NCBI GenBank assembly: GCA_037379345.1
Contig: CM074514.1
Location: 9,238,001 to 9,302,000 of the forward strand
Reading direction: 5' to 3'
DNA: 64,000 nucleotides
Origin: Perna viridis
Lineage: Eukaryota
Within the stretch, counting starts at the first letter, position 1, and every line of letters begins with the position of its first letter. A program made the position numbers and the translations under genes. Below are positions 10,017-64,000 of the stretch, piece by piece. Below the pieces are notes generated by a model. It ran no database searches. It worked only from the letters and a program-made list of their open reading frames with translations, and had not been told where the DNA came from.

Positions 10017-10190
10017 CTGTTTGCCATGGTCGAACGATTTTAAATAACGCATGTAACGAACCATATTCATCAGACAGGATTTACTACCGTGGAGGCATTT
10101 CACGAAATAGTGGTGGGGGGACATGCTCTTCACCGAATAGTTGTATCGATTGTAAGGATGGCTTTTACCCATCTGGAGGTCTATGTCTCA
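10017..10190 (+). CDS. exon 1 in window (Cys-rich/EGF-like)
   Basis: ttgcag|...|gtaagt; VCHGRTILNNAC...GTCSSPNSCIDCKDGFYPSGGLCL; phase 1-1. Confidence 0.85.
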
Positions 10191-13100: not shown

Positions 13101-16100
13101 ATTCCAATTCTTCCCATCACGGTACATTATGTCATTCAATAAATGCATAACCCATGCAATTAGTAATGAAAATCTTGAAAAAATTATGCTAAATTATCAT
13201 CTCTCAACGCTCTCACCACATGCCCCTCAAATCCATCTGAACACAATCGATTTTACAACCTCTGTAAAAAATCATTAATTTTGAAGTAAAATTGTATGAA
13301 CGCCTGGTGAAGGACATTAATCCAGCGCTTCTACTTTGTTGTTGTGATACACTGTATTTCCTCTTTCCGATTAATAAAGGCCATAAAATCAAAAGAGGTT
13401 TCTTTCTCTAGCTTATGTTAGGGTGGCGCACCACGAAGAATCCTTCTTCCAGTGCGGCTTTTTTGATCGATTAATATAATCGTCTTAAGCTTTTACAATT
13501 CAGTTTATTCCGATTCTTAGCCTCATATATCTGAATACACTTATTCACTATATTTACATCTTAATTCAGAGGCGTGTTCATGGCGATCAGATAGCACCCG
13601 ATGTTATCCAGGAAACTGTACAAATGAAGTAGTAGAGTCTTGCTCTTGTACCTCTGGATTTGGCGGAACTCAATGTGATACAAGTAAGCTCTTTCTTATT
13701 GTTTAAATTTGTGTTTATTACCATAATTTTATACTTTAAAAATTTCTCGTGTTTAGATTATGACAAAAATCCATGCATGAAACGGTGAAGAGAAAACAAA
13801 AGAAAGTGTACCAAAAAGATAGTCATGAAATAAGAATGGAAACTAGGCTTCCATCCTATCACAAGTGAGATTTATGAACGCAAATTATTCTTTCTTCAAA
13901 AGCCGTGCACTTTGGACAACAAACATTTATCTAAAGCAATCTTCTTGAATCGATTATATTCATATTTGATGGACCCCAGTCGTAAACATCTTGGTTATGT
14001 TCCAGATGTAGTAACCTTACTTCATAAATATAGTTTACATGAATATTTACTTGGATTTATTCAAGATGGACACTTCCCCTCAAAACAAGAATGGAAAAGA
14101 ATCATTAAACAGAAAGTGTCTAATGTACAAGCCAGCGAATGGTCTACTCGCATAAATAACGATAGTGACTTTGTTAAATTTCGCGAAATACATAATACTT
14201 TGCAAAATATTGGAGAAACTCAGAAACAGAACATGAAATAAAAAGGTCATACTTTATAACAAAACTATTGACGGACGTTCCCAGTGGTTCACTAATTATA
14301 TGTTTAATATGTAATAGACAATACGTAGACTTTTTTGCCATATTTCTTGTACATGTTCTGCAACCAACGTCTTGAGACAAATCTGGCGGGACTTTATAAT
14401 CGAAAACTTCGACCTAGAACTGTTTACAGAACTTGACTCATACTCCTAGGATGATCTTTTTTATTATTCTACTTGGGAAAATACCGAACACTATTTAAAG
14501 CAGCGATGATGACGCAATTAACTTCACTAAATTGTGCCACGCTCATGTTGTACAATGCGCCGCAGAATACAACCGCCGATTTAGGCTTGTTTGTGATAAC
14601 GTTAACGTGGATTGTACTAATACAGATATCCCCGATTGAAATGCATGTTTCATGAAATAATTGTAAATATTTGATATCTTTCTCCATTTTTACATGTAAT
14701 AATGTTTTGTTATTTGCTATATATAAACTGTTCATATATCTTATGTATTCGAGGAAATGAAGGTATGAATGAAAAGTCTAATGCATTCCCATTATAATTT
14801 TATTTAATATTACATTACAGTTACGGAAGAAACGTCGATCCTGTTTGCTGAGATAAAGTTACATAATCCTTCTCATGAAACTGTGACGACACCGACAGAT
14901 CCAAGTGAGACCGGTGCACAGCCGATCAAATTTACAAACAAAGGGGATTTAAATAAAGCAGAAATAGAATTTCATGCAAAGTTTGTCGCTTCTGGTATAC
15001 CTCCACCTCTGGATCCTGAACATTTTGTGACGTATTTTACTCATGGCATTGTTTATGGGCAGATGATATTGGAATATGCAATAGGTTAGTTTTTTGTTTT
15101 TGTATAAATAAGAATTTCCCTTTTCTAAATAAATAACACTACGACAAAAATAATGAAGTAATTTTGATCAATTGCATACAATAATTAAAACCTGATTTTT
15201 TGATAAATTGATTGAGTACACTTCATAAAGTGAACTTTTCACCCTTCGCCATGCAAATATATTGCAAATTTCTTTCTTTGTAGGTCAAATTGATTTTTTT
15301 TTATTTATTTATTTCGTTTTGATAGAGCCTGTCACCTGAACCTAAGGCCAGTATTTGAGATATCATTATAAGTGAAAACCAAATTGCATCATGTAAAATC
15401 CAAGTTTTTTGTTTGAATTACAGGATCATCCAGCAATTTTAGCACATTTAGTTGTCCTGCCACCGAAGATTACCCTATTACAACAAGTTATGTATGTTCA
15501 AGAACAAACACTAACAATAGTGCAATATCTCTACCCACATTCGGTCACAGTGACAAGTAAGTATGGCAAAAAAGAAATGAAACTTTTTGATGCCCTAATT
15601 TTGATCAGACTATGTGGACAATTTTCAGTGCGAATACTGGCTTTCGACAATACCAGTGTCAATGAATAAATGACATTGTGAGGATGTAGACAATTCATTT
15701 CTGTGAGAAATCCAAATGCTTAATTATCCTGAATACAATAATAAGACAATAAGACAATACTTAATTTGATAAACCTCAGAAACACAAATGAACAAGAGGA
15801 CATATACACATTCAAACATAGTCACAACTAACACAGACAACTATTTTATAAACCACATTCAATACATTCCCAATTTTTTTACAAATACATAACATTTCAC
15901 TACAAAAAACTTTGAATTTTTTTAATGAAATGAGCGAGGTCTTTGTACAGTTCAGTATGACATAGTTTAAATAAATCAAAATTTGTTTGTTCAGTTGATT
16001 ATTGTAAATAATATTTTTATCTAAGTTCTAGTATTTCTCTTTTCTGATGAAATTCATCGTCCGTTCCATTTCTACATAATTGGCATGTTCGTTCATCTCG

Positions 16101-19100
16101 TGAAATTCTTGATCATCTCCCGGTTTCAATATGGATCTTTAAATTTTAGTGTCTGAATTTAGATATAAACAGTCTATCTGTTTGTTGTAAACGTAGCAGA
16201 TAATTTTCTAGGCCAAAGGTAGTGTTATATTTTAAATAGAAGTCGCCACGACTTGAGTTAGACATGTTAAACTGCCAGTGTTGTATAAACTCAATTGCAC
16301 CGAAAGCATTGACTCAAATACTTGCTTTTCTTATGGTATTTGGTCATTCCAGATCAACGATGATCCAGTATCATAAAAAATCGATTTAACATGGGAAGTT
16401 CACTTGAATTTGTCTGGGTCTAAAAAATGTAATTTTAACATAACTTGGTACATGATTTGGGGTAGATTTGTATTGTTTAATAGAAGGTTGTTCCAAAACA
16501 TTACCATTCTACATTTGATACTAATATTTGAAGTAAATCAACCCAATTCTCCATAGATCATATAGTTTGGCGTGGTATTTCGAACTCTCAAAATTTTCTT
16601 ACAAAATTGTAAATGAATACTTTCCATTTCTTCTTTTTTGTCGAAACCCAAAACTTCAAATGCATTTAACAGTATTGGACTTATCAATGAGTCAAAAAGG
16701 TTAAGCAATAAATCAATTGGTATGCTTAATTTTTTATTTTTTGCATACAAAGCATAAAGGGCCTTTTGGCTTTGATAACACAGCTTTTTCTTTGCTTTGT
16801 GAAAACTTTCATTATAACTAAATAACACACCTAAGTATGAATAAGTTTCTACAATATCAATATCTTTCAACTTTTGTTTGACTAGTGTTCACTCTTAATT
16901 TTCAAAGCTCACTGTATCTTTCAAAGCATGTCAAACTCTTTCTGCATATCATTTACGCTCTTTGATAATAATGCTGTATCATCAGCATAAAGAATAGCAA
17001 ACAATTTTACAAATATTCCTATAGATTCTTGACATACATCAGAAAAGGTCCGAAGACATTCGATACTGTTTTCTGAAAAAAATCTTCCAAATCATTCAGA
17101 AATAGGGACAATGAAGAAGAAGACAAATTTTCTCCTTGCTTTACTCCAATGTCTGACGTAAAAAAGTCCGAAATATCTTAAAAAATAAATTGTGCATACA
17201 GAACAAAACTATTATCGAAAGTGGAATGCCCCTTTCCAAATCCAGCTTGTAATTTTGTAATCAAATTGGCATGATTTGCGTACTCATTCAACCTTTTATT
17301 CAGAACAGCAGACAGAAACTTTACTGAAGCACGAATTTAGCGTAATGCCCCAATAATATCAGGGTCAGATTTTGAATGCTATTTCTATATGTTGTTATTT
17401 TTATTCCCGTTTGCAAGCTTTCCGGAACAATATTAAATTGAATACTTTTAGATAAATTGGCATGAGGCATTCAATAGTACTTTTGATATATTCATTCAAA
17501 GTTTCGTCCAATCCAAACGCTTTTTCCATTTTTTGGTTAAGATATCGCAGAGGAAATACTTTCCACGTTATCGTCGAATTCGGAACCTTGATCAGTACAT
17601 ACATCATTACTCTCATTAAGACTTTTGAAGTGATGATACAGGGTTTTTATAGAAATATCATTGAATTTTGTTTTTCGTTATTATTTAGACTATTCATGAT
17701 TTTCCAAAGTGACTTTGGATTTTTCTTTGAATGTTCTCTTAATTCATTAGCTACTTTTTTAAAAAGTACTTATAATGCGAACATTTTTTCTTTTTTGTTT
17801 TGAAGGCTTGTTTTTACAATACAAGCCCGTAATGGAGGTTACTTAAGATACCTGAACAGAGAAAACTCTTTGACATCAACAATCAGAACATCACTCACGG
17901 GTATTACAACAACAAGGAGTTACACTGTACAATGGGATTATATTACTCCTTATTATACCTGTCTAAAGAACTTTGGCAGAAGTTGTTCCGACTCACCAAT
18001 AGATGTAACGGATATTACCGATCAGGTAATTATTACTTTTCAAAAGTTAATTGTACTAAGTGTTCATGTTAAGTGTATATCAAATAAGAACTTCTTGCAT
18101 TTTCAGGAAGGTTCGAGATTCAAATATACATTGTACTAACCCTTAAATACAAACTTTTGATGGGTGTTGGACATCATAAAACAACGTAAACATTTCTACG
18201 ACTCATATTTTGATCTAAATGGTTGCTTGATTTTTTTTTCAAATTGCAACAAACTAAAGCCCTCTGATCTAGAAATAATTCTACCTATAGTGGATTTCAT
18301 GTCGTTTTTTTACTTTCGTTATACCCCAAGTACTGTAAAGTGAGGATACATAGTGATATGGGTGTCCGTCCATTTGCCCTTCTCTCCGTTACACAAATGT
18401 GTACTCGTTTCTTATCTGTTAAATTTAGGTTACAGACCACCAATTCAACCAATGAGCATTTGGAACGTAGGCAAAAATAGTCCTACGCAGAAATTACCCC
18501 TGTTCCTCATAGTGCTGTGAAAAAAGTTCTCATCTCATTTAAAAAATTTAAACAGTTTCTGAAAGGAAAAACATTTCTGTTCATTTTATAGGTGCATTTT
18601 GCTTCTTGCGATGTGAAGCCTAATCTCCATAATGATTTCTAATATACCCCTGTCTTGTGAAAACACTGGGATTTCCCATGCTATTTATAGACACTTCACT
18701 TCCGGTGACCAGTACTGCGCTGCAAGTCTGCTAACCCCACATGCCATTCTGAGGATTGTGAGCTGACATATGTAGAATCATGCTGATATATAGTCCTCTG
18801 CAGGTTAAAATTAAGGTTAAGTCCAGAGAAGCCATTGAATATTGTGAAATTAGCATAGAAGCCTATGGGAAGCGGAATTAGTGGTTTTTAGCCTAAATCT
18901 CCTACACCGCTGAACGGAGTTTAATCCTTTATTACAAATTCCTATTGTGAACCTCCTATTTAAGGTTTTGGCCTAAATTAATTTGGAGGTTACAATGCGC
19001 GTGCTATCACGTTGGGAGTGGGGTATTAATTTAGTTAACTTTGCTAACAGTTTTTTAAGGCATTAAGGCATTGAGGGTGAGCAATAAATAGGGTTATTAG

Positions 19101-52100: not shown

Positions 52101-55100
52101 AGGCTAATTAGAAACGTAAACCGCCTTTTGCCAAAAAAATAAGTGCAGTGTTGTCATGGCAACCATAGTCTAGAATGAGCCACAAGGTCATTTCAGAGTA
52201 TTCGTCTTTGAAACATTTTGCTTCCATTCAAGTAAAACAATTTCTTTTTGGTAATTCCAAAGGCATCTAAAGAAAGCCAAAACATTCTTATTTACTATAA
52301 GGATATAAAAAAAGTTGTTATTCCTTTAAAAAAATGGAACGTCGACTAGCAGAGACCAAACAGCCTGGTTTATTTGGGTACTGTATGCTAAAAGTGAACA
52401 AAAATTAATGATTATGATACAGTCAGGTTTAATAAAAATGTTGCGAAGGCAGAAAATACCTTATTTCCCGTTGAATTTATTTGTAGTAAAAAACCTGAAA
52501 AATTTTCAGATTTTAAAATTTTTCAATGAAATGGCTTATTTTCTTTGTTTTGCCGCCAATTTTGTTAATTTTTTTTACAATGAACAAAAAGCACAAAATA
52601 CACTATAAACATATATATTTTGATACAACAGTACAAATTTCATCACTCATTTTTGATAAATATCTGACGATAACATTATTTTTTCTACACAACATTATTG
52701 ACTGTCTCAAATATACACGACAATGTAATCCAACTCCTTTATTAAAGGTTTTAAGTTTATTTTTATACAGCTATCAATTTGAACCTTTAAAATTTGCCAT
52801 AAGGTTCTTGTTATTTTTCGGTTTTTAAGGAATCCTCATCGAATAGGAAATTTCGGATTTTATAAATTTTCTGAAATTCTCCAAAATAAAATTTCTCTGT
52901 TGGTTAACATATTTCAATGCAAATAATTGAGGAAACATGATTGATAATCACCAGGTTCCATCCAGGAGCATCTGCAGTGAATTCTAAATACTCTGGAAGG
53001 TATTAAAACAAATAAAAGAAGGGAGAACGTCTGTCAAAATCCTATAATTAGTGAACGTTTTTCTTTGCATCCATCTGTTGCAACAAAACAATCAATTTAT
53101 CTCCATAAATGATTATGAAGCATACAATAATCAACCCATTTCAGTCTTATATGATAACCTTTACCATATACAGCCGACACTCGTTTTTTTGACACAAATA
53201 TTTCTGTTTTTTTAAGCGACATATTTTTAAAAATATGGTATCCACGAAATGATTTTGTCTTCTTCTCCTGAAACTCACTTGAATACCTGTTTAAATGATA
53301 GTCCTGACACGCATATAAATATCTCATATATTGATTAGTCATTATCGTTATAGTTTTCCCTCATTTTCGAGATAAACACAAACTTTAAAAACAAAACAAT
53401 GAAAAATTAACAGTTCATAAGCTCATCGTACGTTACTATCAAAATATTGAGAAATGATCACAAAACGTTGCATGTTATAATAAGTATTTGTTCCCCAACA
53501 CTTAGACTTCTAAATTGCATAACACTAATCTTCACATTTTCGCCACAAGGCAGATTCCAATATTGGATATGCAGTCATCCTTTATAAGACAAAACATTGG
53601 AGCAAGTTTTGAAGGTTTCTGTGTTACCAATTGATAAAACAGCAGTATTTGAATTTTTTAATTATAACTGCAAAATGTGTTACTGTGATTTTTTTTATAT
53701 AAAAAAAAACATCGACTTATCAAGAATTACTAGACAAAAATCCTGTTCTACTCAATTTAAGAATATTATGAACTCATGTAAAGGCAAGTCATGCCATTGT
53801 TCTGCTTGTTGTTGATAACAGTTTTTCGTATATGCTTTTACATTGTTGACTATTCTTAGTGTTGGTTCTCAATTTTGCTTTTATCGGCATTTGTTTCCAT
53901 ATTGCTTTATATGTTGACTTATAATTTGTGTAGATGTCCACGACTTTAGCTAGATTGATGGCATGTATTGTGCTTATGATGTAAATGTTATTTATATAAT
54001 GCATGTATGTCGATTTTAAAAGCTCCTTTGATCCAAGGAGCTTTTGTTGTACTGCTTAAACGATCGACATTAAATAAAGCTTTCCTATTTGTATATGAAA
54101 AGTAAACAATATTCTACTGACTTCTTATGTGCATACTAAACTGTAGTCCAGAAGAAACAACCAAGCTTCATGTTGAAAAATTAAATAAGTGATAAAAATT
54201 ATAACATTCATATTAAATAATTGATTTTTATCTCAACATTGTTCATCTTAAAGAAACAATTTACAAAAATAATTTGGTTTCTTGCAAATTAAAAAACAAA
54301 TGAAAGGGAGGAATACTGCAAAGATCTAAATACGTTGTCCTTGAATGTAATTGATAAAATCACTAATATAAGTTCAGGAAATAAAAAAAATAAAAGCATC
54401 ATAGCTGTAACAATATATCATCTATTTCAAACAACATTTCCCTGCGTTTCAGATTGAAAACTGAGAAAATTTGAAATAAAACATAACTTAATAAGCTGTG
54501 TATCATTACTAGCAAACCACAATGATGAGTAATACCTCTTTGTTTAATATTTGTCATATCGTCATATCATTGAGTACAAGCTCAAAATATGTAGGCATTA
54601 AATAACATTTAACAATAATACAATGAAAACCAATAGACCAATTATATTGAAATGTAAAATATAAAGGAAATGTTGCTGTTAGCATACATGTGGGATTTAT
54701 TTTAGTCATAAATATTTGCTAGACTATTTTACGTTAGTTCAGTTTCAGATGCCTTTGATTATATGTAATTAAGCTGTCCTAAAAGTGGCAACATATTTTA
54801 GTTGATCTTACCCTACTGAAAGTCTACTGGAATGTTGTCTCGTATTCGTCTGTATTCATGATTAGAAATAGTTTAAAATATTTTATTACAACCAACACTA
54901 TGTATATTTTGGGAAAAGAATTGACTTGATGGATTCAATATGCATACAGTAACATAACATAACTAAAAAGATTGAAAAGTAAAACTTTCAAATTTCCCAT
55001 TTTTCGTCATCAAGTTCTCATTTCGAATGAAATATTAGTTTAACCTCTCTTTGTAATTGTAATTGCATGCCAAGTTTATCCTAACAATTAATGATTTTGC

Positions 55101-58100
55101 GATTATAGTATATTCATGGGAATTTGTAACGGCTTAACTGTTATTAGGTGAAAAATTGAAGGGCTCAGGTCTTCAATCCCATATGTTTCTAGCATACCTT
55201 TTTCTAAAAAAAACCTATTAGGCAAACGGATTACATTTTAAATACACACGTACCGAAATGTGTTTTATAGTCTTATCATGATAAACATTAAAACATTGGC
55301 GAATTACATTTATATATATATGATATACATATAAGTCTACAGGATTGTACAGCGATACCGATAAAGATGTTAACACACTACAATAAAATATATAATGGGC
55401 AAAATTTTCAGTCAACAAATGACCTTCTTCAGCGTCTTAAATAAATAACTAAAAATATATATACGATACGCTCATATTTCCTGAAATGGGGGGGGGGGTG
55501 TCAACCTCCATTAAAAGTGGAACGCTGCTGTTATATTTGGGCAAATAAGTACGACTTTGTTCCACTGCAATCACGCGTAAATACATTGCTTGCTTGCGAA
55601 AAATATCTTAAGGAGTTGTTGGTGTATCCTGTCCCGTGGGGATGTTATTCGGTATACAAAAATCCCTCTAGGAGAGAGGGGAAACGGGGGCTCATGCTGT
55701 CCAATGGTCTATAATCATCATTTTATTTTATGATGCCGCCTTTTTTATACGACCACAATTTTGTTTCGGCCGTACAATGTTACCGCCCTGTCGTGGTGGT
55801 CTTCATCGTCCGATAACTTCAGTTTATTTTTGATAACTTATCAGATGTTTTTTTTAAAATTTTAATACATCGCGGAAGACCCTATAGTTTTTTGATATTT
55901 TTTTAGTTGTTTGATTTTTTCCCCAAAACCTTTTTGGAAATTAGGGAATTAAAAATGGAAAATGGGTGTTACCACTAGAATTTATAGAATAAGCGTATTG
56001 TTGATCCGATTGTCAATCTGTTCTTTTTGAAATTATGTTTTAAAAACTCTTACAGGGTAGGCTTCACTAGTTGCATGGTTGTTATCATGAACTCGTTGAT
56101 CGTTATTGTGTATCCATCTGCATCATAGAAAATGATTTTTTCAACTTGTCATAGTTTTCCTTTACTCTATCGGCTACCCTGGACTTTATTTTTATGAACC
56201 ACTTGGCGGATGTCTTTTGAAAAGCAGAGGACGCTTACCCTACCGGTGCACCTGATTCATGCTGCCAGGTTTTAGTGGAGTCCATGTTGTTCATTCAATT
56301 TTGTTACTTTGTATGTATTATTTTGGTTATTTTATATTCTTTGTTGTGTGTGTCTTTTTCCATGTCTGGTCTTCACCATATCCGTTCTATGTCTATAATA
56401 ATAATTAATGCTTGCATTTTTCAATCAGATTTCAGATATATCATACGGTTTGTGAGTTATAAGGCGCGGAAGGGGCCATCCCTCCCCACCCCCCAAAAAA
56501 GGTTTTTGGTCCGATTTCAAAAGTGTTTTGTATTGAGTTTCCTTTGAAAATCCCTGTCTGCATTTTTAAATCAAATTTCAGTTGTGTCCTACGGTTTTTG
56601 AGTTATAAAGGTTCTAAGGCGCCACAACTCCAAAAATCGACTTTTAAAAAAATTGTTTGTCCAATATCGAAACAAAATTGTTGTTGGTATCCCTATGCTT
56701 TAGTGTGTCAGTAACTAATATTGTGTCCACACTTACTCCGGGTCAACAGTGTTCGACATGCTGTGGTCGTATCACGCTGCGCTTTGCGAAGCTCTTCATT
56801 GTGTAATAACAAACATACCAAGCGACCTTTATTATCAAATATCTAGAAATCATTTATCATTTACGATTCTAAGAATTGTTAAAAGTATCTATCAAAATAC
56901 TTTTACAAGTAAATATTGGTTCATGTTTTTATCGGTCCCAGTGGAGTCCGGATTTACTTTGTTTCTAGTGACGGTTAAATTTAGTGATGCATGTTCTTTG
57001 TTGTGAGTGTCCATCTCCCTTGCCTAGTAGTTATTGTTTGATTATTCTATTTTCAATTACCCTTCGAATTATGTTTGCCTTGATTTCCCTTTTTAATGAA
57101 GGTCTCAGAAAAGATTCCAAACTTTTGGAAGACAGATATAGATTTCATTAAACAAGGATCTTTATACACGGTTGATTGGAAGAACGTTTTCGTGTCATCA
57201 CCTGGAAGTATAAAAATGTTCAACGTGTACCTGAGTTCCTACCCCGAGGGTAACTATTTTTCTTTAAAATGTCGAAATCTCAGACAAGGAAAAACTCAAT
57301 TCATATTTAAATCGTTTTGAATACCGATCGTTCAATGCTGTTTTTATTCCGTTTTAATTAAAAAATTATGTATACTGTAAGGTAAAAAGTAAGAATGACT
57401 TTATTGCTTAAATGTGTTTTATCATAATACTAGTATTCGATTTTTATTTATTTTTATTGTGATTGATATGGTTCCACCTTATATGAACAATGTTGAATTA
57501 AGAATGATTTATGTACTCTTTAGTAATTACGTATTTGCTTCATATAAGAATTGATAACATTCTAATTTGTTTGTTATAATATATTATTTATAAAGGTACA
57601 GATTTACACACCGTAAATGTAAATCTAGACCCTTCAATAACAGCTTTAAACATCAGCCGCCTTGCCATGATCCCTAGTGTGCGTTACTATAGTAATGTTG
57701 TTGCTAGAACACACTCGGGACTCCAGACAACAGCGTCTTCCGATGGTGTAATGGTGGATGTTAATAAACCTGTGTGTGGTTTAGTTTATGATGGAATCGG
57801 TAAGATAAAAACGTAACATATAAGCATTAAAGCTTGTTATTGTTTCATATTTAATTAATGAATGTCATGAATAAACAAATTACCATATTTATTGTCTTCA
57901 AAAATCAAATAAATTATCTTCTACTATACGAACCTTGTTATTCAAATGTCTATTGTATGATTCACTAAAAAAAAACGTAAAAGTGACTATAGGTAATAAC
58001 AATCTTTATCAAAACAACAGGTTTAAATGATGTGGAATACCAAAATAGATCAGATATAACAGCATCTCGATGGCACGGATACACGGACCTGGAATCTGGC

Positions 58101-61100
58101 ATCATAAAATACTCCTGGTGCACTGGTAGCAATACGAATGCCGACAACTGTGATATTTCTGCCTGGAAAAATAATGGAATGCAGACTTCTGTTTCATTCA
58201 ATTTACAGACACCTTTGAAAAATGGTAAGGAAATTAGCTTGAAAAAAACCTCTTAAATTAATTTTCAATATTTTTTTGTATTGAAATTGTATTTTTCTCT
58301 CCTATTTAAAGAGTTGAATCAAAATTAAAAAATCGTTGTAAAGCAAACAATCTTATTTCATCCATAGGTATTTCACATGTATAATAATTAGATTTTGACT
58401 TGAGTACTTGTTTTTATTATGTACAGGAGCAACTGTATACTGCAAAGTCAAGGCAACTGATGGTGTCGGTCACGTGTCAGATGTCATGACATCAAATGGA
58501 GTTGAGGTAGACACAACAGCTCCAATACCCGTCAACTTTATACATAAAGACCATAATTATGTAAACAATCCATCATTTGAAGATAATAATGGATGTTTCA
58601 TGAACATAACAGATATGTCATCAACAAACATTTGTGGATTCGACAATTGTTATCATCCTGTTTCATGGTCGTTAGAGGGATGTGCTATCATTATCCGTTC
58701 TGACGTCAATGCAGCATATGAAGGACGGTCCTTGATATTTCTAAAAGGCGTGATTCAACAGAATGTTACACAACTGAATATCGGATCTATTTACAGACTT
58801 TCGTTCGTGACAGCACACCTACCAATCCAAGAAGCTCTGATCTCTAATTTAGAAGGATCAGTCAGCTTTGGTCAAGGGGAAAACGTGTTTCAAATGTACA
58901 CCAAGTCAAACCAGTCTGATATAGTATGGCATCGGCACGTGTTCTATACGAAATTAGAAGAGAATATGTCATTGATCAAATTCAGTAGTTTAGATAATCA
59001 CGTGGGTTTTCTGGTTGATGACATCCGGATAGAGGAAGTTAAAAGAAAGTCCGGCGATGATACAGCTATAAAGGTCCATACAGTAGAACTACACAGATGG
59101 TCTTCTATTCACGCATCCTGGCTTTTTGTAGATCCCGAGAGTTCCATTAAGGAATATCTTTGGGCAATTGGTAAGCTAAGATATTTTCGACTGCAAAATG
59201 TGTAATATGATTTTAGGCTTTTCTTTTGAGGGATTGAGCTACGAATACTCAAATTTTACCGACATGAATTATGGAAAAGGCTCTCCTACAAACAAAAAGA
59301 TTACCAATAGTTGTTGTTCTACTATCAAGTTTGATTCATTGTTTTGCATTGTCTTCTATTTTTGTCCAAAAACCTATCAAGTTATTACATTGGAAGTTAA
59401 AAAATTTTGGCAAAATAAATTGCTATATTCCTTAATTCGATTTAGGAAACACAGAGGGAAGTGCAGAATTACAAGATTTTGTGAGTGTTGGTGTTAATAC
59501 ATTTGCCTATAATTATGACCTGACATTAGTCCATGCTTCACAAGTATACGTAACAGTAGTAGCTATCAACGGTGCTGGTTTGACAAATGTAGCGTACTCA
59601 ACAGCAATAGACATAGACAAAACTCCACCAGTTCTGGAGGAGGTTCATGATGGAACAGGTCTGTGGCACTGAAAAGTCATTCTTTAGAACAAACCAATAT
59701 TTAAATTTTACAATGTAATTTTTTGAAATACACCTAATGCTGTCAATTTGATTATTTGTATGTAGTTTTACTGGAGAATGTATACATTGGCAGGGAGTTC
59801 AGTAATGAAAGACATTTTAAACACTAAATGATATATTTCATTTATACTTCTCAACAAAACTGTATTTAAAAAATCTTTACCTCAGTCAGTATTTATCGAA
59901 GCACGTTAAATAATATAAAAAAAACAAAACATTTACATGATTAGCTGACGATCAACGCAAGCAACTACTCCCATACGAGTGATGAAACTATATATTATTT
60001 TATTAGGTGTTGATATAGATGGTCAGACAACTAACACTATAGCTGTTAACTGGAAAGTGTCGGACCCAGAATCAGGAATAAGCTTCTGTGAATGGTCAAT
60101 AGGTGAGGGAATCTGTATTAGTATATACGAACTATTTATTGAGAAATCATAAGTATTTTTTTTAGTTTAAATGGATTGATCATGTTTAGGCACATAAACT
60201 TATCCTAACCGACAAAATTATATCTTACTAATTTACGTTGTCATACCTGCTAGAAAGTAAAATTATCAGGGATGAAATGTGAAGACAGTAAATATTAATT
60301 ATAAATAAAGTCCCAATTTAATAAAAAAAAAATAAACAAAATAGCGTATAGCCAATGAAAAGGAAAATACTAATGTAAGTGAAATTCTATTCCATCCCGT
60401 ACCAAATCAAACCAGATCGGCTAGTCTAATGAAGCATACACAGAGAATTTCATAATACTGCAAATTAAATTATGTATGATAAACTTAACCCGAAGGATGT
60501 ATTATAGTAAGTACAGTAGTAAGCTTATTCCCTGAGAATTAGTTATGTTATTTTTGTGTCGAAAAGTTATAATTCAGGGGACTGTTAAACGAAGCTATCT
60601 TATCCTACTCCTCAACTCGTGACACTATTCTAAAAAATGACTGAGTAAACCTTTTCAATTATATATTCTGTACTGACTACATGAATACAGACAGTGTAAT
60701 GACAAGATCTGAAGAGATTTTCCATGAACAGACTACTTTAACGTAGTATATTTGGGAAAATTACGAAGTTCGAAGGACATAGATTTCACTTATGGCGTAT
60801 TACAAAATTAAGGGTATTTCCTAATATATAAACAGTTTGAGTTTGACAGCTTTCTAGGGTAAATAAAGATGTAAAGATGAAAGGTTTGTTCTTTTACTAT
60901 ATTTAGAGTTATGTCAGACATTCTATGAAATAGTTTATGTACAAACGTTGTACAACATTAATAAACAGTCTAATTATTGAAATACAAACTCTTTTATGAA
61001 TTTACAAGATGAAACAAAAAAAAAAATGTGAAATCGATTGGTTGATTAATTGATTGCTTAGGTTTAACGCCCGAGCAGCCATAGTTCAGCTATATTCAGG

Positions 61101-62950
61101 CGATGGACCTGAAATGACGATGAAATAAAAATAAAAGGATTGGAAACAAGTATGGGTTGACAAATATGGATTGCCACTGGAAATAGGGAGAGGTGGGTGG
61201 GGTCGGGCAATTTAGCCTCCTACTCCGATAAAATACCACAGAAGGGTTCTTTAAAGTGCGATGAACTTCGCATCTTTCCCAACAAGTTGCTCCATTATGG
61301 TTTGTGATCAGGTTTTCCCAACATGTAACATGACAGGGGTACCCAATTCCACCACTTGGGGCGGACAACCCAATTGTTCCGTGGGTTCTGAGCATTATTT
61401 ATTCGTCTTATACAACAAGCATATCGCTGCTGCAGTACTATTCTTGTGACACCCGGGCCTGCAATTTGAATGATCTACCTTCCTGTGTTTAAACGTTTAA
61501 ATAATTACTTTTGCAGTGTCTTTAACTTTTGTAAATTAAATTTCTTTTTTATTGTCAAAAGCAGTGATGCCATAAGTGATATACAATACATTTTACATGC
61601 TATATATATATAAGTGAATGAAAAATATTCTGTTGGCTTGGAGACCATCTTTACCCAGATAGCTTTAAGATTCTTAGCTCTAACGTACAGTGTCAGACAT
61701 GTCCTTGGATGATCATATGATGTTATGTTTTATCTAAGGATAGTTTAATTAAAAAAGCATTGAATTGTACTGCGGTTTGTCAAAATCATCTGAAATTTAT
61801 AATCGGTTAAACGTTAGAATTTTTGATCGGTTAACCGGTTAACCGTTAGATTTTGTTACCAATGCAACACGGATATTTCCCAAGTCACATAGTAGCATTT
61901 AACGTGTTTTTCATTTGTTCTTAAATTAAGACCAAGCTTTAAACGGCGGTATTTTCACGTCTAGTTGCTTTGGCCATTTAAGAGCCCAAAAAGAGTATAA
62001 CGACAATTCTGATAACCAATCTGAATAATCGATTTTAATAAGTATTTAAACAACATATAAGGTTGTAATGGTTAACCGGAAAACCGCTTCTATTTCTATT
62101 TACAACTGGTGATGAAAAATTAAATGAACTATCATTTGGAGTACATGTTTTTTTAGTGGATCAAGATTTGAGTACATATAATTCTATTTAAGGTCTACAA
62201 CCACTTGGTAATGAGCTTCAATCTTTCACACGGACCACTGATCTCGATTCTGCATCTGTTGACTTAGAAGTAGCATCAGTTTCACAAAAAACTATTTACT
62301 CTACCATCAGATGTCATAACAAAGGAGGGTTATACACTACATCGACATCTGACGGTGTGGCTGTATCAGAAAAACCGCCATCTATTGACAATGCTGAGAT
62401 AACTATAGTTCCGTTACATGTGACGGAATACAGTCCGGGTGATTTTGACCAAGGAGATACTGCTACAATTAGAATGAAATGGACTGGTTTTACCGACCAA
62501 TTTAAAATACTGTCATTTGTGGTAAATATCCTAGATCTTCGTACATGTTTGGTCAGAATGTCATCTTTATGGAATTATTCATTTTACTAAATGCATTAAT
62601 TAAAATAGTCTTGTTTTTGCTCTTGTTTTTTGTTTTATATTTCTCTTAACAAGTTGAAATTCTTAACTGTACATGTATAAACAGCTGAAAATACAAAACA
62701 ATACATTAATTTTGGTTTTTACAAGTACAATTAGTTTTGTATTTTGAGGTTAAATTGGATGGCGGAGGTCTTCATTTCAAGAATAATATCTTAAATGTAA
62801 ATGAAGGTGTAACATACATGTCCGTCCAGGGATTACAGCTGACGAATGATGTTTATACAGCGAGCGTTGCTGCAACCAACTATATGTACATCAGAAGTAG
62901 CCAAGTCTATACTAATATTACTGTCAACCAATCGTCACCTTCAGTTAAAG
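10017..62950 (+). CDS. Giant multi-exon gene, partial at both ends: Cys-rich/EGF-like modules, then about 20+ FN3/Ig-like repeats and one CBM-like domain; about 3,210 aa in window; uncharacterised invertebrate extracellular protein
   Basis: 49 exons joined by hand. All have AG acceptors and GT donors (one GC), the phases chain without conflict, and the 9,630 nt are open. The motif DxTPPxxGxVxDG/DxDxQ/WxGFxDxESGIxxY/YYxxVxAxNxxG/SDG recurs across splice junctions. Confidence 0.9.
10430..10576 (+). CDS. exon 2 (Cys-rich)
   Basis: ctatag|...|gtaagt; ICPSIANCNHRRCSTPSDNYCEWC...KQCR; phase 1-1. Confidence 0.85.
13570..13683 (+). CDS. exon 3 (EGF-like)
   Basis: attcag|...|gtaagc; KACSWRSDSTRCYPGNCTNEVVESCSCTSGFGGTQCDT (CxCxxGFxGxxC). 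Confidence 0.88.
13820..14770 (+). mobile_element. non-LTR retrotransposon ORF2 C-terminal fragment (RTE-X/L2-like), decayed
   Basis: ...KAIFLNRLYSY...LLHKYSL...FPSKQEWKRIIK...W..RI..DSDF.KFREIH, then CxxC...H...C remnants; frameshifts. Confidence 0.6.
14821..15084 (+). CDS. exon 4
   Basis: ttacag|...|gttagt; contains ORF 14883. Confidence 0.85.
15424..15556 (+). CDS. exon 5
   Basis: ttacag|...|gtaagt; GSSSNFSTFSCPATEDYP...GHSD; phase 1-2. Confidence 0.85.
15735..17790 (-). mobile_element. RTE-X-like non-LTR retrotransposon fragment, decayed
   Basis: minus-strand GVKQGENLS, ILYADD, YSYLGVLF...KALYAL...LFDSLISPIL...TPNYMIYGELG; (TTATTGTC)n-type 3' tail near 15735-15760. Confidence 0.8.
17806..18025 (+). 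CDS. exon 6
   Basis: ttgaag|...|gtaatt; KLVFTIQARNGGYL...WDYITP...ITDQ; phase 2-0. Confidence 0.85.
19397..19546 (+). CDS. exon 7
   Basis: ctacag|...|gtacaa; KLTMFTWKAWSDDLAGVDFYEYEI... Confidence 0.85.
19748..20339. mobile_element. MITE with ~30-bp TIRs, TTAA-flanked, containing ~2 copies of a ~207-bp internal repeat
   Basis: ttaa|GTATGGTTCTACCTAAAAACAAGGCAG ... CTGCCTGGTTTTAAGGTAGAGCTGTAC|ttaa; TTTGACTGGTTATA at 19894 and 20101. Confidence 0.7.
20815..21163 (+). CDS. exon 8
   Basis: cctcag|...|gtatca; GKFNVTQPGMYSIILTAFDKAGN... Confidence 0.9.
21565..21859 (+). CDS. exon 9
   Basis: ttgtag|...|gtaagg; GVVKFDVNY...VKATDIIG...DVTYP. Confidence 0.9.
22382..22508 (+). CDS. exon 10
   Basis: caacag|...|gtatgt; TFEFDAFDYHSGLHNVHWKL... 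Confidence 0.88.
23043..23267 (+). CDS. exon 11
   Basis: ttaaag|...|gtaaat; NITLCEDLYE...YFIEITVVNQAML. Confidence 0.88.
23687..23887 (+). CDS. exon 12
   Basis: ttacag|...|gtatca; ITIDISPPQPGSVHDG...VDYQQ...WDGFFDPESGVKYY. Confidence 0.92.
24174..24445 (+). CDS. exon 13
   Basis: ttttag|...|gtatat; ...YFITVVALNKA...CSDGVTI. Confidence 0.9.
24615..24738 (+). CDS. exon 14
   Basis: ttgtag|...|gtttgt; SASPSIIDDIKLIPE...; restores phase 2-0. Confidence 0.8.
25055..25273 (+). CDS. exon 15
   Basis: atgtag|...|gtacaa; MVITWDSVDDERIVFDYEIG... Confidence 0.88.
26094..26250 (+). CDS. exon 16
   Basis: ttttag|...|gtaagg; SIGPIIIDVTPP...ANWSKGAFQDTED...FAI. Confidence 0.9.
26436..26765. repeat. cluster of GTCTT/AAGAC palindromic motifs, probably subterminal repeats of a DNA transposon remnant
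   Basis: more than 12 copies of GTCTT/AAGAC (e.g. gtcttaagac, gtcttgaagac, gtctcaagac); no partner terminus found. Confidence 0.45.
28269..29916. mobile_element. non-autonomous hAT-like DNA transposon with a 6-bp TSD (TATACA)
   Basis: TATACA at 28263-28268 and 29917-29922; CAGGGG.../...CTCCTG ends with imperfect TIR; subterminal TCGCCAG repeats at both ends. Confidence 0.75.
28799..29315 (-). mobile_element. SINE-like non-autonomous retroelement (V-domain/RUDI-like), full length with 14-bp TSD
   Basis: TSD TGATATCTGAATAG at 28785-28798 and 29316-29329; (AAAC)n tail; GCACGTTAAAGAACCC core; 3' ATATAGCTGAAATATTGCTG..GACGTTAAA; second copy at 61036-61463. Confidence 0.8.
32045..32180 (+). repeat. 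dispersed repeat, unclassified (also at 43822-43955)
   Basis: ccact.tatagatag.tcactgcagataa...gacaatttgt.gaaata shared by both loci. Confidence 0.6.
33712..33992 (+). CDS. exon 17
   Basis: tttaag|...|gtatgt; GQSKDRTDV...YYVTIKVTNLAGLS... Confidence 0.88.
34222..34422 (+). CDS. exon 18
   Basis: ttacag|...|gtatgt; DIIDVDF...WKGFHHPH...LGTTHGSCD. Confidence 0.9.
35153..35282 (+). CDS. exon 19
   Basis: tttcag|...|gtatgt; KYFFTVKAITSAG...SDGVMVVD...IHDGPVCT. Confidence 0.9.
36003..36037 (+). CDS. exon 20 (35-nt microexon)
   Basis: ttgtag|...|gtaagt; DETSVNASHHTN; needed to convert phase 1 to 0. Confidence 0.78.
36543..36684 (+). CDS. exon 21
   Basis: ttgtag|...|gttagg; DILKHCLPDIDYQTSTTTLYAKW... 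Confidence 0.88.
36996..37210 (+). CDS. exon 22
   Basis: acacag|...|gtaata; ...LQPGRTYRFNIKLC...SDGVTI. Confidence 0.9.
37523..37690 (+). CDS. exon 23
   Basis: ttgtag|...|gtgagt; ITIITKQMYDPDI...IDFFEWAI. Confidence 0.88.
37765..38700 (-). mobile_element. Penelope-like (Naiad-type) RT and 3' UTR fragment
   Basis: GIPIGTYCNPLFADQFLHSYEADF, KLYDKRDDFSF; 3' UTR matches 31290-31555. Confidence 0.85.
38939..39122 (+). CDS. exon 24
   Basis: atctag|...|gtaggt; FKFDVILED...LRGYNKV...; phase 0-1 (an in-frame acceptor 6 nt downstream is also possible). Confidence 0.8.
39597..39839 (+). CDS. exon 25
   Basis: ccaaag|...|gtaagt; EDGSSEDV...PDVDYIP...YQWGV...KCGHT. Confidence 0.85.
39810..40345 (+). 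repeat. degenerate tandem array derived from the 3' end and donor of exon 25
   Basis: variants of atcatcaaatgtggtcat(acag)gta at about 39818, 39897, 39926, 39965, 40217 and 40324. Confidence 0.5.
40732..40952 (+). CDS. exon 26
   Basis: tttaag|...|gtaaaa; ...LIHGKRYSVCV...CSDGVVVDLTAPIGGNVWVG. Confidence 0.88.
41155..41308 (+). mobile_element. Penelope-like 3' end (solo pLTR-like fragment)
   Basis: agtccgagttgctcatttgc...gattaccgctataaccttggttcccttgattac, matching 31415-31555. Confidence 0.8.
41710..41815 (+). CDS. exon 27 (GC donor)
   Basis: tcgcag|...|gcaagt; TSSSDIYVTWDSFVDVEE...SGISHYLVSV. Confidence 0.85.
42362..42478 (+). CDS. exon 28
   Basis: ttgaag|...|gtgatg; GSVEDGVDVIDKRNVG...LQDGHTYYVSVS. 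Confidence 0.88.
42715..42850 (+). CDS. exon 29
   Basis: caacag|...|gtaaat; GVDFISRN...VTVDTTPP. Confidence 0.9.
43185..43490 (-). mobile_element. Penelope-like 3' end (ORF end plus 3' UTR)
   Basis: reverse complement of 31262-31555. Confidence 0.85.
44437..44617 (+). CDS. exon 30
   Basis: ttgtag|...|gtaata; CWKNIFFDIESGIDHYMVGLGS...PYFVTVK. Confidence 0.92.
45003..45279 (+). CDS. exon 31
   Basis: atttag|...|gtgagt; AYNRAGLS...DISSPVAGHVYDG...DIDYQ...WEGFHDPHS. Confidence 0.92.
45493..45679 (+). CDS. exon 32
   Basis: ttgcag|...|gtgaat; ...SDGVTIDNSPPVPGIVQDG. Confidence 0.9.
45903..46114 (+). CDS. exon 33
   Basis: ttccag|...|gtaact; RDYIPAKWFGFNDVQS...VRAYNKA. Confidence 0.92.
46394..46626 (+). 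CDS. exon 34
   Basis: cctcag|...|gtaatt; GIYTESTSNGFIVDVSPP... Confidence 0.9.
46870..47023 (+). CDS. exon 35
   Basis: ttttag|...|gtaaac; INGILREY...LHDGGTYYF...IDTTPP. Confidence 0.9.
47545..47723 (+). CDS. exon 36
   Basis: ttcaag|...|gtatga; GMFAIG...WVGFSDLHTGIDKYYVSVGS...LNK. Confidence 0.9.
47658..48398 (+). repeat. tandem array, 10 copies of a ~76-bp unit comprising the exon 36 3' end, its splice donor and ~12 nt of intron
   Basis: GGTATAG-like anchors at 47664, 47740, 47816, 47892, (~47969), 48033, 48109, 48183, 48259 and 48335. Confidence 0.92.
48670..48813 (+). CDS. exon 37
   Basis: taatag|...|gtaatc; VPGIPTELSH...FISVWATNK. Confidence 0.87.
49725..49893 (+). CDS. exon 38 (small Cys-rich insert)
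   Basis: acctag|...|gtcagt; VGLRS...RRCDSLTCLGHCVCSPKDQRCHINGQSC. Confidence 0.87.
50280..50421 (+). CDS. exon 39
   Basis: tgttag|...|gtaaag; DNKNTMITVSD...LAAKW. Confidence 0.87.
50767..50888 (+). CDS. exon 40
   Basis: ccaaag|...|gtttgg; WYEWSVGLSS... Confidence 0.87.
51890..52029 (+). CDS. exon 41
   Basis: tttcag|...|gtgagt; GQKLAELYTYSVFVRVWY...SNGITV. Confidence 0.88.
55975..56375 (+). mobile_element. Penelope-like 3' fragment, diverged
   Basis: catgaactcgttgatcgttat...aaagcagaggacgcttaccctaccggtgcacctg...gtttttccatgtctggtctt. Confidence 0.75.
56407..56695 (+). repeat. two-copy ~150-bp tandem repeat, probably transposon-internal
   Basis: tgcatttttcaatcagatttcag...acggtttgtgagttataagg recurs at 56414 and 56559. 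Confidence 0.55.
57102..57249 (+). CDS. exon 42
   Basis: atgaag|...|gtaact; VSEKIPNFWKTDIDF...WKNVF. Confidence 0.87.
57596..57799 (+). CDS. exon 43
   Basis: ataaag|...|gtaaga; GTDLHTV...YYSNVVA...SSDGVMVDVNKPVCGLVYDGI. Confidence 0.9.
58021..58224 (+). CDS. exon 44
   Basis: caacag|...|gtaagg; GLNDVEYQ...WHGYTDLESGIIKYSWCTG. Confidence 0.92.
58427..59170 (+). CDS. exon 45 (744 nt; contains CBM/DUF642-like jelly-roll)
   Basis: gtacag|...|gtaagc; ...VDTTAP...NPSFE...YRLSF...FLVDDIRI...WLFVDPESSIKEYLWAI. Confidence 0.92.
59446..59658 (+). CDS. exon 46
   Basis: atttag|...|gtctgt; GNTEGSAELQDF...YVTVVAINGAGL...DKTPP...VHDG. Confidence 0.9.
60007..60102 (+). CDS. exon 47
   Basis: tattag|...|gtgagg; GVDIDGQ...WKVSDPESGISFCEWSI. 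Confidence 0.9.
61036..61463 (-). mobile_element. second, internally deleted copy of the V-domain/RUDI-like SINE
   Basis: colinear with 28799-29315; (AATC)n-like tail. Confidence 0.8.
62193..62521 (+). CDS. exon 48
   Basis: tttaag|...|gtaaat; GLQPLGNELQSF...RCHNKGGL...SDGV...WTGFTD. Confidence 0.9.
62749..62950 (+). CDS. exon 49 in window (gene continues beyond window)
   Basis: tttgag|...|gttatt; VKLDGGG...YTASVAATNY...NQSSP. Confidence 0.8.
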
Positions 62951-63278
62951 GTTATTAAAATTATATATTAAAAAATACATGAAATTGTATGTTATCAATA
63001 AAAATCAATTAACATTAATTGTATAAGGGATATATCGTTGTTGTTATTCTTCATTCTTTATTTGTGTTCCCCCGCTCCCTAGGGGAAAAGGTTATACTTT
63101 TACATTTGTGTTCCTGTAATGCATATTTCAATAGATTGAATCAAAAATTATTCTTTGATGTTTTCAAATTTCTTTACTCTACTTCTTAATTTTATTCGTT
63201 TAACTGTTCTTTATGGTGTTGTTGAGAAACAAAATAGTTTTGTAATGTTCCATGAAAACTGTTTTTTTATACTACATC

Positions 63279-64000
63279 TAACAAATAAGCTTCTGGAACA
63301 GGGTTATGTTGCTACAAGATTGAAGACATCACTACAGAAGTTTTATGGTCGTCATCATGAACTCGTGGATTGTTATGGTGTATCCATCTGCACCTTTCCT
63401 CGTTTGTCTAGCCCGGACTTGACTTTTTATGAGCAACTCGGTGGGTGTTTCTAGAAAAGCAGAGGACGCTTACCCTACCGGTGCACCTGCTCTGTATATT
63501 TGGAAGATGATTTAGAATTATTTCTTACAAAGTATGAGGAATCTCTACCAAGAACTATATATTTGTATCTAGGTGTACCATCTTTTTTGGAAAAACAACG
63601 ATGTATGATGTTTTGAAGTCGGGATTTTAACTGAGTATGGGGAATAGAAGTATACATGTTGAAAAATCATAGGTTTTAATGCTATTATATTCAGATAATA
63701 GTCTTGAACTGATTGTCTCCAAAAGATCTTTCGAATTTTTCAGGATCCACATTGAATTAATAACACTACGGGAATAACAAGTGTTGTGGTAGGAGAAAAG
63801 CAGTGGACGCTTACCCCCCCCCCGGTGCACCTGGTCCATGCTCCCAGTTTTTAGTGGAGTCCGAGTTGCCCATTTGCTTTTGTTACTTTGTATGTATGAT
63901 TTTAGTTACTTTGTTGTGTATGTCTGTTTTCCATTTCGGGTCTTTGTCCCTGGATTACATTCTTTTGATAACCGCTGTAACCTTGGTTCCCTTGTTTACT
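63279..64000. mobile_element. Penelope-like composite: + strand 3' piece (63279-63489), inverted RT piece (63490-63792), + strand 3' UTR again (63793-64000)
   Basis: LLEQGYVATRLKTSLQKFYGRHHELVD on +; MWILKNSKDLLE on -; aaaagcag.ggacgcttaccc...ccggtgcacctg occurs twice. Confidence 0.85.

Follow-up and report, generated by a model that had tools for sequence, protein, structure and literature searches.

The 64,000-nucleotide stretch of Perna viridis DNA analyzed here (the window; 33% G+C) poses two problems: (i) whether a single giant gene is hidden in its many short exons and (ii) what the product of such a gene might do. The earlier note, made from the letters alone, had described 49 exons encoding EGF-like modules followed by FN3/Ig-like repeats, recognized no named gene, and considered an old horizontal origin possible. 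We find that the gene is real and belongs to an ancient, uncharacterized family. Its plan, a rod of tandem beta-sandwiches, is a known one, here combined with a variable tip.

For the gene model we used a purpose-written spliced protein-to-DNA alignment with a scallop homolog (P0005) as the guide protein. The 49 exons proposed between 10017 and 62950 on the plus strand do join in phase, giving 3,211 codons free of stops. The alignment score was 55,172 on the plus strand; in the same aligner the minus strand scored 1,317 and a shuffled protein 1,566. Seven weak exons (three before 10017 and four between 16163 and 17594) were removed from the model, and one acceptor was shifted from 39564 to 39597 to agree with the exon lengths of paralogs. 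The four small exons at 16163-17594 were rejected because the intron at this place is just 91-94 nt long in the paralogs. Exons in the window measure 35-744 nt (median 181; 24 of 49 are shorter than 180 nt). The proposed extent holds for these 49 exons but not for the whole gene, which passes both ends of the window: three exons lie 2.7-7.4 kb before window position 1 and one lies 560 bp past 64000. With a signal-peptide-like start and a final exon with a stop located in the flanking DNA, the full model comprises 53 coding exons (3,370 residues) and 52 introns (51 GT-AG and one GC-AG).

10017..62950, plus strand: window part of the gene, 49 of 53 coding exons, residues 68-3279 of 3,370
Exons 1-7 of the window, plus strand: 10017-10190, 10430-10576, 13570-13683, 14821-15084, 15424-15556, 17806-18025, 19397-19552
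Exons 8-14 of the window, plus strand: 20815-21163, 21565-21859, 22382-22508, 23043-23267, 23687-23887, 24174-24445, 24615-24738
Exons 15-21 of the window, plus strand: 25055-25273, 26094-26250, 33712-33992, 34222-34422, 35153-35282, 36003-36037, 36543-36684
Exons 22-28 of the window, plus strand: 36996-37210, 37523-37690, 38939-39122, 39597-39839, 40732-40952, 41710-41815, 42362-42478
Exons 29-35 of the window, plus strand: 42715-42850, 44437-44617, 45003-45279, 45493-45679, 45903-46114, 46394-46626, 46870-47023
Exons 36-42 of the window, plus strand: 47545-47723, 48670-48813, 49725-49893, 50280-50421, 50767-50888, 51890-52029, 57102-57249
Exons 43-49 of the window, plus strand: 57596-57799, 58021-58224, 58427-59170, 59446-59658, 60007-60102, 62193-62521, 62749-62950
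41816..42361, plus strand: the sole GC-AG intron of the model, flanked by exons of 106 and 117 nt that have the same lengths in paralogs
G000:C4 9230635-9230696, outside the window: signal-peptide exon, predicted from splice signals and paralog comparison only
G000:C4 9234871-9234954 and 9235285-9235340, outside the window: EMI-like exons, predicted from splice signals and paralog comparison only
G000:C4 9302561-9302835, outside the window: last exon, with the stop

RNA, which the earlier note had named as the check on its junctions, bears out part of them. Four runs were compared with positions 41600-60300, and at least nine of the 20 model introns in this span appear as exact GT..AG joints among those listed; on either side of it, the junctions are backed by reading frame, splice signals, and exon lengths that agree with those of paralogs. 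At least three joints (49893/50280, 50421/50767, and 58224/58427) occur on contigs whose letters are those of the window, showing 0-1 differences where paralogs differ at 12-23 places, in two runs (X1 and X2) that are RNA by guess only. Stranded raw reads (X21 and X22) carry paralog letters at every listed comparable site. The window gene and its close paralogs therefore both appear to be spliced.

Several other features of the locus were observed. The last 63 nt of exon 47545-47723 and its splice donor form a 76-bp tandem array of 9.9 copies at 47661-48396, so the intron opens with a row of decoy donors; read-through into the array hits a stop immediately. One X1 contig joint at 57199-57932 has CT..AC ends (side 27 letters). 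Together with several contigs in introns at 56924-60104, it may reflect antisense transcription with splicing in this region. A short, highly repeated intronic element (43180-43500, 56070-56370, and 63270-64000) is very deep in all four runs. Upstream of the window's first exon (136-1762 and 6998-7622) and in a 7.5-kb intron (28068-31644) are frame fragments that we take to be reverse-transcriptase-like, for example a 238-aa frame at 30574-31290.

From its signal-peptide-like start and the lack of a membrane anchor, the 3,370-aa product is predicted to be secreted. The only hydrophobic segment is at the N-terminus, no transmembrane segment is present (the highest 19-residue hydropathy beyond the N-terminus is 1.3), and the stop follows the last FN3-like repeat. 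As derived from sequence, the mature protein is ~375 kDa, with a pI of 5.2, 77 Cys, and 31 N-glycan sequons. Its domains are arranged in the order EMI-like tip, three EGF-like exons, and FN3-like repeats, with a CBM-like domain nested in a late repeat.

10017..13683, plus strand: three EGF-like exons rich in Cys, residues 68-212; exons one and two of these are in the tip region that diverges between paralogs
14821..23267, plus strand: about four divergent beta-sandwich domains, residues 213-802; the repeat profile matches one (402-502)
23687..58510, plus strand: main stalk, 14 profile-detected FN3-like repeats of ~107-130 aa, residues 806-2780
58549..59049, plus strand: CBM-like domain (galactose-binding fold, DUF642-like), lying in the 744-nt exon and nested in a repeat behind its first strand region
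59050..62950, plus strand: last FN3-like repeats; one further repeat is on the final exon beyond the window, followed by the stop

The earlier note had counted about 20 or more repeats of ~110-130 aa. Tandem repeats are indeed present; a profile built from the window protein and 13 homologs detects 19, of ~107-130 aa, in addition to divergent ones. Within the main stalk, residues ~1445-1712 have no profile match and ~2390-2432 form a short Cys-rich linker. The quoted motifs stand as a consensus but are not present in each repeat: in the window protein D-x-[TS]-P-P occurs seven times, D-x-D-x-Q three times, W-x-G-F-x-D five times, and Y-[YF]-x2-V-x-A-x-N-x2-G once. Pfam had no match to four of five window exons and weak matches to one; the EGF-like exons have weak matches only (Furin-like_2, E 0.019; EGF_DL_JAG, E 0.2). 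Pfam fn3 is above cut-off in most homologs, excluding P0001 and P0002.

The FN3-like nature of the repeats was supported by two AlphaFold models (mean pLDDT 92.3 and 87.6) that match FN3 tandems, and together with the full gene model they uphold the view of one giant extracellular protein of FN3-like sandwiches. The first model covers three repeats and the content of the 744-nt exon in the Mytilus protein P0002 (62 sequences, pTM 0.80). In it the repeat is a seven-strand sandwich with conserved Trp and Tyr, and in a fold search its single-domain matches include titin Fn3 (Z 10.7, rmsd 2.2, 98 aligned); a PDB sequence search with P0002 returned nothing relevant (one row, E 0.068). The second covers the N-terminal 797 residues of the oyster protein P0036 (35 sequences, pTM 0.62) and contains a long hairpin whose loop is of low confidence, along with small Cys-rich modules and roughly four further sandwiches. 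These sandwiches align with tandems of PTPRD, fibronectin, Tie2, and SiiE at Z 10.9-11.2 (PTPRD FN4-6: Z 11.2, rmsd 8.0, 287 aligned; SiiE: Z 10.9, rmsd 6.6, 260 aligned). Judging from the models, we infer at least 22 sandwiches, and about 24 if the unmodeled residues 1445-1712 hold two more; at the usual length of such a domain, ~24 extended sandwiches would make a rod predicted to be ~90-100 nm long.

Both parts of the architecture in the earlier note, EGF-like and FN3/Ig-like, are present, but the CBM-like domain in the 744-nt exon had been overlooked. In the P0002 model it is a separate sandwich nested in the middle repeat. The closest structure is TmCBM61 (Z 14.6, rmsd 2.2, 130 aligned), followed by CBM4-2 and a cyanobacterial (Fischerella) cyclase, both at Z 14.1. 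Its Atlas features score 0.92 to DUF642 clusters, and Pfam DUF642 is found in homologs at E 6e-8 to 5e-3. The modeled fold suggests that the domain may bind glycans; against this, the cyclase scores as well as the CBMs, and a fold in common need not mean a function in common.

At the other end of the protein, the tip has the sequence CC-x-[GE]-Y in the window gene and in eight of nine aligned paralog tips (E1 is without one Cys). A CC pair in the C-terminal half is described as characteristic of the EMI domain (bioRxiv 10.64898/2026.05.13.724420). None of five tip stretches matches Pfam EMI (PF07546) at E <= 5. When a tip profile was compared with PDB sequences, the sole molecule listed was the N-terminal domain of TGFBI, a weak match (E 0.19), and at domain E 0.05 the profile fails to find L003, L006, and the tip of the window gene itself. 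In fold searches with the tip-containing model, the listings were filled by sandwich domains. Given the CC pair, the absence of Pfam EMI, and the weak TGFBI match, we term the tip EMI-like. In the oyster model it is a long hairpin ending in a low-confidence Trp/Lys loop. Tips in the mussel genome have 7-13 aromatic residues per 48-55, and Lys/Arg exceed Asp/Glu in 9 of 10. EMI domains are described as mediating adhesion in NimA and PEAR1 (PMC13076899) and have been proposed to take part in multimerization (PMC11949838).

In the databases, relatives are labeled "uncharacterized," "Fibronectin type-III domain-containing," or "EGF-like domain-containing," and no characterized ortholog was found. 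Searches of article listings turned up no paper on the family; proteome tables in supplementary files may list its accessions. Passages of a limpet mucus proteome paper (PMC7333891) and of a mussel expression atlas (PMC5549309) name no such protein.

A patchy spread over marine invertebrates and bacteria, which according to the earlier note would have supported transfer, was not what we found; instead, a colinear family spans a choanoflagellate and six bilaterian phyla. Mytilus proteins are the nearest relatives with a name, and colinear relatives at 32-42% identity occur in bivalves, gastropods, the nemertean Lineus, the annelid Owenia, echinoderms, the hemichordate Saccoglossus, and the amphioxus Branchiostoma. 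In the choanoflagellate Diaphanoeca grandis there is a protein of 3,510 residues (P0116) that is colinear in two blocks at 24-26% identity and has the CBM-like insert (E 4.5e-8 among the collected proteins; Pfam DUF642 E 0.002). Metagenome proteins are likewise colinear and have the insert. A tree of the last 1,330 residues (38 sequences, 1,271 columns; built without frameshifted copies, non-colinear proteins, or Littorina P0020) largely matches animal phylogeny, with molluscs and Lineus apart from deuterostomes and gastropods apart from bivalves; Owenia is misplaced at 0.72.

More broadly, 1,936 clusters match the repeat at E <= 0.001. It occurs in other architectures in sponge, coral, Capsaspora, a chytrid, Apiculatamorpha, and several bacteria, the sponge and coral matches examined being of the non-colinear type. 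Insect, nematode, and vertebrate names were absent from the named matches (42 proteins and 30 look-ups of 150 listed, of the 1,936), and none of eight pattern matches on viral contigs was confirmed. In P0018, P0022, P0029, and P0034 (Lingula, Capsaspora, chytrid, and other records) a Vitellogenin_N-like region is joined to the same repeats, and a C-terminal membrane segment is predicted in some relatives. Capsaspora CAOG_01639 (P0010) has 19 of these repeats alongside dermatopontin and CD36 domains. Other heads are found on the same stalk in database gene models, which are unverified and may be fusions: C-type lectin plus SRCR or SRCR only in two Amphiura proteins whose later stalks are 89-94% identical, TSP1 plus PLAT in Haliotis, and trefoil plus a weak F5/8 match in Lottia.

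The resemblance to bacterial proteins noted earlier is genuine, as a profile of the animal repeats scores bacterial ones at up to 108 bits. Bacteria named with the repeat are Marinimicrobia, Schekmanbacteria, Acidimicrobiia, and Elusimicrobia. A GTDB scan with P0009 caught mainly the ordinary FN3 part of that protein, with weak repeat matches (19-27 bits) in 6 of 21 loci, and thus carries little information on bacterial range. Despite the similarity, horizontal transfer of a bacterial adhesin into molluscs or a nearby lineage, the kind of origin suggested earlier, is very improbable. In a tree of 117 repeats (106 columns; 24 proteins, with at most the five best repeats of each), bilaterian repeats cluster by position, and the 35 bacterial repeats sampled all fall into a single clade at 0.95, where two of seven bacterial labels are based on domain content rather than taxon name. 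The wide colinear family, its largely phylogenetic protein tree, and this separate clade therefore do not support transfer into molluscs. The CBM-like insert was found in none of six bacterial proteins checked, and five distant paralogs have 48-51 of the 52 intron positions in common with the window gene. Nesting in bacterial sequences, a narrow animal range, and a paucity of introns, as expected of recent transfer, were not seen. A far older exchange of the repeat unit, in either direction, may have occurred. The extracellular FN3-like giant and its repeat in common with bacteria thus survive from the first interpretation, but the horizontal origin in or near molluscs does not.

Three Asp positions (the repeat start, DG, and F-x-D) are conserved in all groups. 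The interface site of the Salmonella adhesin SiiE is described as having three Asp residues, one of them in D-x-A-G-N (PMC6272769). Bacterial versions of the repeat have this ligand motif; in animal repeats it is N-x-A-G-L, the position being mostly Asn. By analogy with SiiE, stiffening of the rod by Ca2+ is plausible, but with this ligand motif changed in the animal repeats.

The paralogs, like the variable tip, lay beyond what the earlier note could see. We searched the genome (723 Mb, 46 contigs) and found at least 20 matches to the CBM exon at 18 or more loci and at least 17 matches to the first EGF-like exon. Four close copies are in tandem on contig C4 (L002-L005, of which L005 is frameshifted), one is on C1 (L006), and one is decayed (L007). 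A further copy, frameshifted and 3'-truncated (G000:C4:9187936-9223506, L011-L015), adjoins the window gene directly upstream on the same strand. Five distant paralogs, those with the shared introns, are on C8.

The five intact copies (the window gene, L002, L003, L004, and L006) are 35-56% identical (mean 41%) in the EMI-like tip and 62-88% identical (mean 76%) in the first EGF-like exon; beyond residue 214 identity averages 92-95%, and the four closest copies have stalks that are 96-98% identical. The same gradient is seen at synonymous sites and in introns, which points to old tips on stalks that were shared recently. Differences at four-fold sites in residues 69-175 versus residue 1001 to the end number 17/24 versus 25/1015 for L004/L006, 21/30 versus 16/1020 for L003/L004, and 6/36 versus 28/1019 for L002/L003; the contrast has P < 0.01 in 10 of 10 pairs. 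Tips of close paralogs are as different from one another as from those of distant ones (L004/L006 38%, L004/D1 53%). L004 and L006, on different contigs, share ten upstream DNA blocks over ~14 kb at 82-94%, signal-peptide exon included, then have no DNA alignment (E 1e-10) from -4,247 to +1,368, and then stalks at 92-97%. With alignable DNA on both sides, the divergence is not an edge effect. Paralog identity does not drop at the 3' end of the coding region.

The heads of L004 and L005 are alike (97.7% DNA identity), so a tip of its own is not a feature of every copy. An orphan head of the L004 type (G000:C4:8585695-8576556), with signal peptide, EMI-like part, and three EGF-like exons but stalkless, sits between L004 and L003, 40 kb upstream of L003. 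It is the sole orphan head found, has lost Cys residues, and has a 113-nt exon where paralogs have 114; alternative first-exon cassettes on one stalk were rejected on these grounds, and from its sequence we read the head as a probable relic. A likeness of the 5' introns of the window gene and L003 was dropped, as it disappears under local alignment.

Since near-identical copies carry very different tips, a tethered recognizer of varied surfaces appears a likely function. The FN3-like chain would be secreted as a long rod, the C-terminal CBM-like domain would tether it to host glycans, and the variable Cys-rich tip at the N-terminus would bind varied ligands on microbes or particles. Gene conversion or unequal crossing-over would homogenize the stalks, while old tips would be retained or exchanged as an exon cassette. 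We infer each of these steps (glycan tethering, Ca2+ stiffening, ligand binding, and homogenization with tip swapping), and we give surface recognition as a whole somewhat less than an even chance. The restriction of divergence to the tips of near-identical stalks points to it, as do the putative lectin, SRCR, TSP1, PLAT, and trefoil heads in other species and, by analogy, the EMI-dependent adhesion of NimA and PEAR1 (PMC13076899). A local divergence peak under gene conversion has also been described as a signature of selection (PMC3924837). Counting against it, tip pN (0.42) is below saturated pS (0.86) in the paralog comparison and so gives no direct sign of positive selection, L004 and L005 have one head, and several copies are frameshifted. 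The head exons are predicted only, the foreign heads may be fusions, and the tip/stalk contrast could reflect mis-assembly of near-identical tandem copies.

Other functions would account for parts of this evidence. The rod may instead space and link glycans and proteins in mucus, shell matrix, or connective tissue, with the EMI-like tip for multimerization and each paralog assembling with itself. Such a structural cross-linker, which we think rather unlikely, would suit FN3 tandems and EMI domains, both typical of extracellular matrix, the proposed multimerizing role of EMI (PMC11949838), the acidic, sequon-rich, anchorless chain, and a stalk under strong constraint (dN ~0.03-0.04 versus dS 0.10-0.18); it fits poorly with lectin, SRCR, and trefoil heads and with a relative in a shell-less choanoflagellate, and the passages of the limpet and mussel papers cited above name no such protein. 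Neutral turnover, in which partial duplications and unequal crossing-over in a tandem array leave differing tips as a by-product without selection, would explain the decayed copies, the orphan head, and the frameshifted genes as frequent rearrangement, and long, repeat-filled first introns could block conversion there. We nevertheless consider it improbable: all five intact close copies keep open, Cys-conserving tips despite synonymous sites near saturation, the divergent block of L004/L006 is bounded on both sides, and identity stays level at the 3' end. Improbable to much the same degree is recognition of self, kin, or gametes, with tips tracking a co-evolving conspecific partner in sperm-egg contact, larval settlement, or cell sorting. 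Tip-restricted divergence and the EMI-dependent cell-cell adhesion of NimA (PMC13076899) would agree with this, but there is no membrane anchor, the genes are spread over 18 or more loci of a single genome instead of forming one polymorphic locus, and dN does not exceed dS.

The family is a concrete candidate in a matter that is only partly explained. Bivalves and other ciliary-mucus feeders discriminate between particles and microbes, and known lectins explain only part of this. Here is a large, ancient, nameless family with a constant stalk and variable heads, and mussel paralogs with the same stalk and different 48-residue tips are a ready test. More speculatively, a secreted rod, tethered to glycans and with a replaceable tip cassette, may form a recognition system older than animals, used by mucus and cilia feeders from choanoflagellates to mussels and amphioxus to sort food, symbionts, or pathogens on body surfaces, and diversified in mussels by tip-exon swaps between homogenized stalks; we regard this joint proposal as doubtful but worth stating. 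The genes also offer a clear example from nature of a divergence island under concerted evolution, as well as an adhesin-like repeat common to bacteria and eukaryotes without recent transfer. If the tips are neutral, what remains is an ordinary uncharacterized extracellular FN3 family.

Several known systems resemble parts of this protein. Closest are the database records of Magallana gigas (LOC105348718/A0A8W8NPW1), Branchiostoma floridae (LOC118405866), and Patiria miniata (LOC119723761), proteins that are colinear over ~3,000-3,400 residues at 32-42% identity and have the same CBM-like insert and C-terminus; the tip/stalk mosaic of the mussel paralogs is absent from these records. CBM61, CBM4, CBM22, CBM16, and plant and bacterial DUF642 have the same beta-sandwich fold as the CBM-like domain (Z 13-14.6), but the mussel domain is only 10-19% identical to them and is nested in an FN3-like repeat. 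Giant bacterial Ig-like adhesins (SiiE of Salmonella and RTX adhesins) are, like the mussel rod, tandem beta-sandwiches with Asp at domain starts, and fold matches include SiiE (Z 10.9), the ice-binding adhesin 4p99, and 6xi3. SiiE and the bacterial versions of this repeat both carry D-x-A-G-N, in place of which the animal repeats have N-x-A-G-L. In contrast to these adhesins, the mussel gene is eukaryotic, with 53 exons, an N-terminal signal peptide, and a Cys-rich tip, and its repeats are diverged and position-specific rather than near-identical.

The N-terminal region recalls Nimrod, Draper, MEGF10, and PEAR1, as well as EMILIN and TGFBI/periostin, in which a Cys-rich module with a CC pair likewise precedes EGF-like modules. 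The mussel protein differs in lacking a Pfam EMI match and any transmembrane or cytoplasmic part, and in having only three EGF-like exons, after which it continues into an FN3 rod and CBM-like domain. For the pattern among paralogs, the parallel is with opsins that have a divergence peak under gene conversion (PMC3924837), where, as described there, homogenized exons and introns flank a locally divergent block, as here. Compared with that account, the mussel block spans several exons and its DNA is unalignable, which is nearer to cassette exchange than to a few selected sites.
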